From NCBI RefSeq assembly GCF_003334785.1, contig NZ_QOWV01000005.1: a DNA stretch of 64,000 nt. One strand, written 5' to 3'. The stretch comes from Escherichia coli (GTDB lineage: Bacteria > Pseudomonadota > Gammaproteobacteria > Enterobacterales > Enterobacteriaceae). Below, piece by piece: positions 57,001 through 60,000 of this stretch. Position 1 is the first letter of the stretch. The number at the start of each line of letters is the position of its first letter. A program made the position numbers.

Positions 57001-60000
57001 CCAGAACGCCTCGGACTTGATTGGTGGCGTGAGCAAAAGCGGTGACCGCTATGTCGACCACACCATGTTCGATATGGTACAGTCGCTGACCATTGCCGAC
57101 AGCCTGAAGTTTGGTAAAGCGGTACTGAATAAGCTCGGTAAAATCAACAAGCTGCATAAAAATCAAGTTGAACAGGCCGGGTTTGCCGTACTAAAGGCAC
57201 CAGATATTCCCTCCATTCTGGTCGAAACGGCGTTTATCAGTAACGTTGAGGAAGAGCGTAAACTGAAAACGGCGACTTTCCAGCAGGAAGTTGCGGAGTC
57301 TATTCTTGCGGGGATTAAAGCGTATTTTGCCGATGGGGCGACGCTGGCGAGAAGGGGATGATAAAAAGGCGCTGAATGGCGCTTTTTTATGGGAGACCAG
57401 AAACAAAAAAACACCCGTTAGGGTGTTCAATAATTGGTTGCGGGGGCCGGATTTGAACCGACGACCTTCGGGTTATGAGCCCGACGAGCTACCAGGCTGC
57501 TCCACCCCGCGTCCGTGGATGCGCACTATACTCCGCTCGCGTTTTCATGCAACCTTTTTTTTACCCCGATCACGGATTTGGCATGATTTTGAACAAAAAC
57601 AAATCACTAAAGCCTATTTTTTGTGCAAAATTTGCGTCAGGGAGAGGCTGCTCATTTCATTAAACGCGGCGGTTTGTTATCTTCGTTGCGCCTTATTTTT
57701 TAACCTGAAGAAGAGAACAATGAAAGGACGTTGGGTAAAGTACCTTCTTATGGGCACGGTTGTGGCAATGCTTGCCGCCTGCTCTTCCAAACCAACCGAT
57801 CGCGGACAGCAATATAAAGACGGGAAATTTACCCAGCCTTTCTCTCTGGTGAACCAGCCAGATGCCGTTGGCGCGCCGATTAACGCCGGTGATTTTGCCG
57901 AGCAAATTAACCATATCCGTAATTCGTCACCGCGTCTGTATGGCAACCAGAGTAATGTTTATAACGCGGTGCAAGAGTGGCTGCGCGCAGGCGGTGATAC
58001 CCGCAATATGCGCCAGTTCGGCATTGATGCCTGGCAGATGGAAGGTGCCGACAACTATGGTAACGTGCAGTTTACCGGTTATTACACGCCGGTAATTCAG
58101 GCGCGCCATACCCGCCAGGGCGAGTTCCAGTATCCTATTTACCGTATGCCGCCAAAACGTGGTCGTCTGCCGTCTCGTGCGGAGATCTACGCGGGGGCAT
58201 TGAGTGATAAATATATTCTCGCTTACAGTAACTCCCTGATGGATAACTTCATTATGGATGTGCAGGGTAGTGGGTATATCGACTTTGGTGATGGCAGTCC
58301 GCTTAACTTTTTCAGCTATGCAGGGAAAAACGGTCATGCCTATCGCAGCATTGGTAAGGTGCTGATCGACCGTGGCGAAGTGAAAAAAGAAGATATGTCG
58401 ATGCAGGCGATTCGTCACTGGGGCGAAACACACAGTGAAGCCGAGGTTCGCGAGCTGCTGGAACAGAACCCGTCTTTCGTCTTCTTTAAACCGCAATCTT
58501 TTGCTCCGGTGAAAGGGGCAAGTGCGGTGCCGCTGGTTGGTCGCGCGTCAGTTGCCTCTGATCGTTCCATTATTCCGCCAGGTACTACCTTGCTGGCAGA
58601 AGTGCCGTTGCTGGATAATAACGGCAAATTTAATGGTCAGTACGAACTGCGTCTGATGGTGGCGCTGGATGTCGGTGGTGCAATCAAAGGCCAACACTTC
58701 GATATCTATCAAGGGATCGGGCCGGAAGCCGGACACCGCGCAGGTTGGTACAACCACTATGGACGTGTCTGGGTGCTGAAAACCGCCCCGGGCGCAGGTA
58801 ACGTCTTTAGCGGCTGATGTGATATTCTGTATGCCGTTTTTACGGATATGACAGGGTGAGGGGTAACCTCACATCCTGATTATTGACTAAGTGCGCGTTG
58901 TTCATGCCGGATGCGGCGTGAACGCCTTATCCGGCCTACAAATCATGCAAATCCAAAATATTGCAGGAGTTATGTAGGCCTGATAAGCGTAGCGCATCAG
59001 GCATTTATGCGTTTAGGGTGAGGGATAACCTCGCCCTTTTTAATTCTGAGGTGCTATGTCTGTGGTAATTAGTGATGCATGGCGTCAGCGTTTTGGTGGC
59101 ACAGCGCGTCTGTATGGTGAAAAAGCGTTGCAACTGTTTGCTGACGCGCATATTTGTGTGGTTGGTATCGGTGGTGTCGGTTCCTGGGCGGCGGAAGCGC
59201 TGGCGCGCACGGGGATTGGCGCAATCACGCTTATCGATATGGATGATGTGTGCGTCACCAATACCAATCGGCAAATTCATGCCCTGCGCGATAACGTTGG
59301 GCTGGCAAAAGCGGAAGTTATGGCGGAGCGTATTCGCCAGATTAACCCGGAGTGCCGTGTAACGGTGGTGGATGATTTCGTGACGCCGGATAACGTAGCG
59401 CAGTATATGAGCGTGGGTTATTCGTACGTGATTGATGCCATTGATAGTGTACGGCCCAAAGCGGCGCTGATTGCTTATTGTCGGCGCAATAAAATCCCAC
59501 TGGTCACAACCGGTGGCGCGGGTGGGCAGATTGATCCGACGCAGATTCAGGTTACCGATCTGGCGAAAACGATTCAGGACCCGCTGGCGGCGAAGTTGCG
59601 CGAGCGCCTGAAAAGCGATTTTGGCGTAGTGAAAAACAGTAAAGGTAAGCTCGGCGTGGATTGCGTGTTTTCTACTGAAGCGCTGGTGTACCCGCAGTCA
59701 GACGGTACGGTGTGTGCGATGAAAGCCACGGCAGAAGGGCCGAAGCGGATGGATTGTGCATCTGGATTTGGCGCGGCAACGATGGTGACCGCCACCTTTG
59801 GGTTTGTTGCGGTTTCTCATGCGCTGAAGAAGATGATGGCGAAAGCGGCGCGTCAGGGTTAAACAATCAGGTCGGATGAGACGCGAACGTCTTATCCGAC
59901 CCGGTTCTGTGCTTAAACCTGCTTCGTCGCAGCGATAATCGCCTCGCTTAACGCATTTAACCCCTGGCTGCGTGAGGCGCTAAGCTGCGCACGTAATCCC

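Follow-up and report, generated by a model that had tools for sequence, protein, structure and literature searches.

The mltA-amiC interval holds one initiator tRNA gene

The DNA examined here, referred to as the window, is a single stretch of 64,000 nucleotides of Escherichia coli. A tRNA scan of the window, as suggested in an earlier note on this DNA, was performed with ARAGORN and detected exactly one tRNA gene in the 64 kb, a tRNA-Met(CAU) at 57435..57511 on the minus strand. The gene lies between amiC and mltA, and the features of this interval are as follows.

amiC, 56108..57361, plus strand: flanking gene on the terminator side, from the list of open reading frames and the annotation of the near-identical stretch of strain BR1220
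Intrinsic terminator, 57399..57428, minus strand: directly 3' of the tRNA gene; hairpin at 57428..57409, then a T-run
tRNA-fMet1 gene of the metZ/W/V type, 57435..57511, minus strand: 77 nt, CCA end encoded; no other initiator tRNA gene in the window
Putative promoter, 57525..57552, minus strand: -35 TTGCAT at 57552..57547, a 16-nt spacer and -10 TATAGT at 57530..57525, as read from the sequence
mltA, 57720..58817, plus strand: flanking gene on the promoter side, divergent from the tRNA gene, from the same two sources as amiC

The anticodon reported by ARAGORN was CAU (CAT in the DNA), as in an initiator tRNA. Alignment to the Rfam tRNA model gave a score of 61.4 bits and marked the first acceptor pair (1:72) as non-standard; direct reading found a C1/A72 mismatch at this pair, which is the unpaired 1:72 position of initiators. 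The anticodon stem contains three consecutive G-C pairs, G29-G31 with C39-C41 (TCGGG-CTCATAA-CCCGA, read directly), and three such pairs are given as a feature of bacterial initiator tRNAs in PMC3017606. A G at position 46, also read directly, places the gene with the fMet1 isoacceptor, as opposed to metY of K-12, which is distinguished by A46 (bioRxiv 10.64898/2026.04.16.719103). The 77 nucleotides were identical throughout to each of K-12 metZ, metW and metV.

The entire region upstream of the tRNA gene was identical to that of K-12. The TTGCAT and TATAGT hexamers are the likely -35 and -10 elements within it, although a consensus scan of the window made no call for this putative promoter. 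A GC-rich stretch is present 3' of the putative -10, 13 nt ahead of the tRNA gene, and promoter-down mutations of metZWV are reported in or adjoining the -10 box (PMC3017606). On the other side of the gene, a terminator scan located an 8-pair stem, GAACACCCTAACGGGTGTTT, followed by TTTTGTTTCT, and this sequence was identical to the terminator found 3' of metV in K-12. The gene thus has the position of metZWV, between mltA and amiC and with the K-12 promoter and terminator as flanks. These results identified the feature as metZWV, the well-known operon for initiator tRNA in E. coli, represented by one gene.

Two repeat units of the K-12 array are missing

The earlier note had stated that K-12 carries a tandem triplet, metZ-metW-metV, at this locus, and this was correct: three copies are annotated in MG1655 between mltA and amiC, at a period of 110 bp. 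The two K-12 spacers, ATTAAAATTTGATGAAGTAAAGCAGTACGGTGA and ATCAAATTTGATGAAGTAAAAGCAGTACGGTGA, are 33 nt each and differ from each other at 3 positions. Alignment of positions 14619-64000 of the window with MG1655 (~49 kb) detected 13 substitutions and a sole indel, in which 220 bp are missing from the window. This loss corresponds to exactly two 110-bp units, with end points that fall inside the repeats. Position, tRNA, upstream promoter region and terminator are therefore all identical to those of K-12 metZWV, and the difference consists of one gene in the window as opposed to three, with both spacers absent.

The note had also stated that the flanking ~200 bp hold no further copy of the 77-nt gene, and this held over a wider range. 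No second or partial tRNA copy was found anywhere in the window, neither K-12 spacer could be traced in it when up to 3 mismatches were allowed, and no direct repeats were detected within ~600 bp on either side of the tRNA gene. As the window also contains no other tRNA gene and no other tandem repeat, there is nothing internal to show how the assembler handled repeats.

Two explanations for the missing 220 bp were considered. The identical 77-nt repeats could have undergone unequal recombination or replication slippage that removed two 110-bp units from the chromosome and left one functional gene, its promoter and terminator unchanged; a loss of precisely two units, ending within repeats on both sides, fits such an event. 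An assembler that skipped the repeat loop, a possibility of which the earlier note had warned, would leave the same sequence as a deletion, so the exact two-unit loss does not discriminate between the two. Both collapse and real deletion are known categories.

Among single-copy genomes, the best match to positions 40000-64000 of the window was strain BR1220 (CP093068), with 3 SNPs in 24 kb. Comparison of BR1220 with positions 1-25000 detected more differences, and it was not the best match there. None of 5,426 complete E. coli genomes was identical to the window, and the region is too conserved to delimit its relatives. BR1220 retains three glyVXY copies, an intact array, and has three tRNA-Arg genes, but these arrays are uninformative on the window because the two sequences are not identical.

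Some other features of the window were recorded during these comparisons. The K-12 alignment begins at 14619; positions 1-14618 are a type III secretion island of the ETT2 type that MG1655 lacks in large part, and several of the island genes are frameshifted or interrupted in the annotation of the near-identical BR1220. The start codon of ppdC (42354-42356) is ATA in the window, where K-12 and BR1220 both have ATG. In YgdB (ygdB, 41962-42369) this base change also produces a C131Y substitution. Public assemblies carry the C131Y allele very commonly, which marks the change as a widespread polymorphism as opposed to an error.

Copy number of the met array in complete E. coli genomes

A comparison across genomes, which the earlier note had also advised, was performed on the 5,426 complete E. 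coli genomes with probes that can be matched in one piece only by a given copy number. The following counts were obtained.

At least one tRNA-spacer-tRNA junction: 5,195 genomes of 5,426
One copy, K-12-type flanks on both sides: 109 genomes
One copy, amiC side adjoining an island with type VI secretion genes: 94 genomes
Two copies, K-12-type flanks: 116 genomes
At least four tandem copies: 67 genomes

One met copy at the locus was thus seen in ~4% of complete public E. coli genomes, most of them from a small number of submitter series. A first figure of 213 for the single-copy class was discarded, as about half of these genomes had the island flank and not K-12-type flanks.

The junction count bears on the idea that the lineage of the window never had the triplet and that the K-12 triplet is a derived amplification. 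One initiator tRNA gene is the state of many bacteria (PMC3017606, discussion), which is nothing specific to this locus. The presence of a junction in nearly all E. coli genomes runs against an ancestral single copy, and the 13 substitutions in 49 kb relative to K-12, together with identical flanks, indicate a very recent ancestor shared with three-copy genomes. An ancestral single-copy state is extremely improbable on these grounds and is almost excluded.

Variation of the array in nature was evident from the other classes. The two-copy class came from varied submitters and included the early reference genome of IAI39, which we take to be Sanger finished. Strain HS had four copies in three separate assemblies, one of which is NC_009800.1. 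The four-copy probe gave two overlapping full-length matches in a group of genomes that are similar in size and come from many accession series, from which at least five copies follow for these genomes. With HS at four copies and this group at five or more, the array also expands. Genomes with five matching places had initially been read as expansions; the dedicated four-copy probe replaced that reading, and these genomes have three copies, the extra matching place being assumed to be an island-end remnant.

Overall, these data indicated that unequal recombination or slippage does change the copy number of the met array in nature, which adds weight to a real deletion in the window. These natural alleles (two copies in IAI39, four in HS, at least five in others) involve the same array and the gain or loss of whole 110-bp units, as would a loss of two units here. 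They differ in that they recur across accession series, and for HS in three assemblies, whereas no such recurrence was found for the single-copy state. The two-copy class, with its varied submitters, looks as a natural polymorphism should, in contrast to the single-copy class.

Several further observations were made on individual genomes. An island with tssB and tssC lies directly after the last tRNA copy in AVS0710, 2000-3039 and MB06171; the end of the met array appears to serve as an island insertion site, and the window carries no such island. The complete sequence of strain ST648 (NZ_CP008697.1) has no annotated initiator tRNA between the island genes and mltA and has two glyVXY copies, which suggests that its assembly was poorly resolved. 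The assemblies of FDAARGOS_1259, JNEC-KY179 and MFDS1019527 combine four met copies with two of glyVXY, through either real variation or assembly noise.

Single-copy assemblies follow submitters and often carry other shortened arrays

Among the 109 genomes with one copy and K-12-type flanks, the WP-ESBL, GF, ABW, STK, CE, TUM and LH series were recurrent. The AVS series (CP1243xx-CP1245xx) contributed 33 of the 60 genomes listed from the 94 with an island flank, and the same submitter series were found both for strains that carry the island and for strains that lack it. In public single-copy assemblies, the copy state tracks submitter series and not lineage, and no single-copy lineage reproduced by independent laboratories was found. 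Both observations count against a real deletion, given that states of two, four and five copies are each seen in several accession series.

The glyVXY array was used as a control, being structurally matched to the met array with three 76-nt tRNA genes and spacers of 35 and 36 nt. One glyVXY copy was detected in 15 genomes and two copies in 81. Five of the 15 (MC1061, OV2, O104:H4 2011C-3493, HS13-1 and TUM11356) were single-copy at both met and glyVXY, and at least 10 of the 60 listed genomes with two glyVXY copies were single-copy at met, compared to ~2 expected by chance. A shortened arg array was also seen in the AVS series: AVS0710 has 2 tRNA-Arg genes next to serV, compared to 4 in an O25b:H4 genome that shares its flanking protein alleles. 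This co-occurrence of a single met copy with shortened gly and arg arrays is a further point against real deletion.

The serV-arg array itself is variable. It comprises four copies with 275/139/275-nt spacing in K-12 and four with ~140-nt spacing in the O25b:H4 genome, three copies in BR1220 and two in AVS0710, so that both copy number and spacer layout vary between genomes.

Derivatives of K-12, the ancestor of which has three met copies, provided a direct comparison of assemblies with close relatives. The MC1061 assembly has one met copy as opposed to three in DH10B, presumably a Sanger-finished descendant of MC1061. OV2 and MC1061, both K-12 strains, are single-copy at met and at glyVXY, and J53 and ME8067, both single-copy at met, sit in different K-12 clusters. 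Single-copy K-12 assemblies contradict close relatives with three copies, which counts against deletion. Those of J53 and ME8067 are short-read-first hybrids, for which Unicycler 0.4.4 combined 150-bp reads with MinION data (PMC5968721, PMC6013617), and the tRNA genes reported for them number 82 and 81, respectively (PMC5968721, PMC6013617), compared to 86 for MG1655 (PMC11480407).

Other arrays were intact in some of the single-copy assemblies. MG1655p has three glyVXY and three leuQPV copies despite its single met copy, and J53 keeps four arg copies. A global collapse in every single-copy assembly was ruled out by the intact gly, leu and arg arrays of MG1655p and J53. The retention of comparable arrays in MG1655p, J53 and BR1220 is a point in favour of real deletion. 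Moreover, single-copy calls were ~7-fold more common at the met array than at glyVXY (109 versus 15). Weaker selection against the loss of initiator copies would also account for this excess.

The sequence in the window resembles that of the assemblies in which arrays have collapsed (J53, ME8067, MC1061, OV2 and AVS), all having an identical single-copy sequence with clean flanks. What sets those assemblies apart is that their method of assembly, or further arrays that are shortened, are on record. The case for collapse in the window rests on base rates from other public assemblies. Judged on those base rates, the single copy in the window is probably due to collapse of the tandem repeat during assembly. 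The proposal in the earlier note that recombination had produced copy-number variation was borne out for the array, which varies in nature, and is compatible with the exact two-unit loss; as an account of the window itself, assembly collapse is likelier. A deletion in the chromosome of this organism is the less likely alternative.

Graph word size as a proposed route to collapse

A route by which an assembler may lose two copies can be proposed from the layout of the array. At this locus the metZWV operon consists of one promoter, tRNA-fMet1 and one terminator, with transcription directed away from mltA and towards amiC. Pairs of met copies share 81, 83 and 94 nt of exact context, and pairs of glyVXY copies share 86, 78 and 93 nt. 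If the words of a short-read graph were shorter than the 81 to 94 nt shared at met, one tRNA would link the upstream and downstream flanks by a direct path, both spacer loops could be dropped and a single tRNA would be left.

The shared lengths predict different outcomes for the two arrays. At word sizes of 79 to 83, the met flanks would be joined via a single tRNA and the shortest path through glyVXY would keep two copies. Word sizes of 84 to 93 would shorten both arrays to two copies, and at 95 or above both should be resolved. The pattern of one met copy with two glyVXY copies in public assemblies matches the prediction for word sizes of 79 to 83. We infer that the pipelines of these submitters used such word sizes, and the assembly from which the window derives may have been collapsed by the same route.

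Initiator tRNA dosage

Published work bears out the statement of the earlier note that copy number can affect initiator tRNA dosage (PMC3017606; PMC9981150). The level of initiator tRNA follows gene copy number (PMC3017606), and cells from which all of metZWV has been deleted are viable, showing cold sensitivity and a reduced fidelity of initiation (PMC3017606; PMC11480407). That the loss of the whole array is tolerated, with the tRNA level tracking copy number, favours a real deletion in the window. Loss of some copies is reported to be a disadvantage in rich medium and an advantage in poor medium (Samhita 2014, cited in PMC9981150). Such an advantage of partial-copy loss would explain why loss is more common at met than at glyVXY. 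It is possible, though less likely, that the organism truly has one metZ-type gene, in which case such losses would be recurrent and possibly selected in E. coli in nature, favoured where growth is slow or nutrients are scarce and better tolerated than losses at similar elongator arrays, glyVXY among them.

If the loss were real, the closest laboratory counterparts would be the engineered strains in which metZWV is deleted or carries promoter-down mutations (Kapoor et al. 2011; the 2024 tRNA transcription-unit deletion set), in which a lowered initiator dosage is likewise expected (PMC3017606, PMC11480407). The whole operon is removed or silenced in those strains, whereas the window keeps one gene and an intact promoter. 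With metY, a true deletion would leave two initiator tRNA genes as opposed to four and roughly half the initiator tRNA, and from the laboratory strains, one would expect altered growth in rich compared to poor medium, along with changes in cold sensitivity and in the fidelity of start-codon use. It would add a natural example and no new principle, as these effects are already documented.

If, as is the preferred reading, the single copy is an artefact of assembly, tRNA gene counts from hybrid or short-read assemblies should not be taken as biology. The organism would then hold the usual three copies at this locus and metY elsewhere, with a normal dosage of initiator tRNA.
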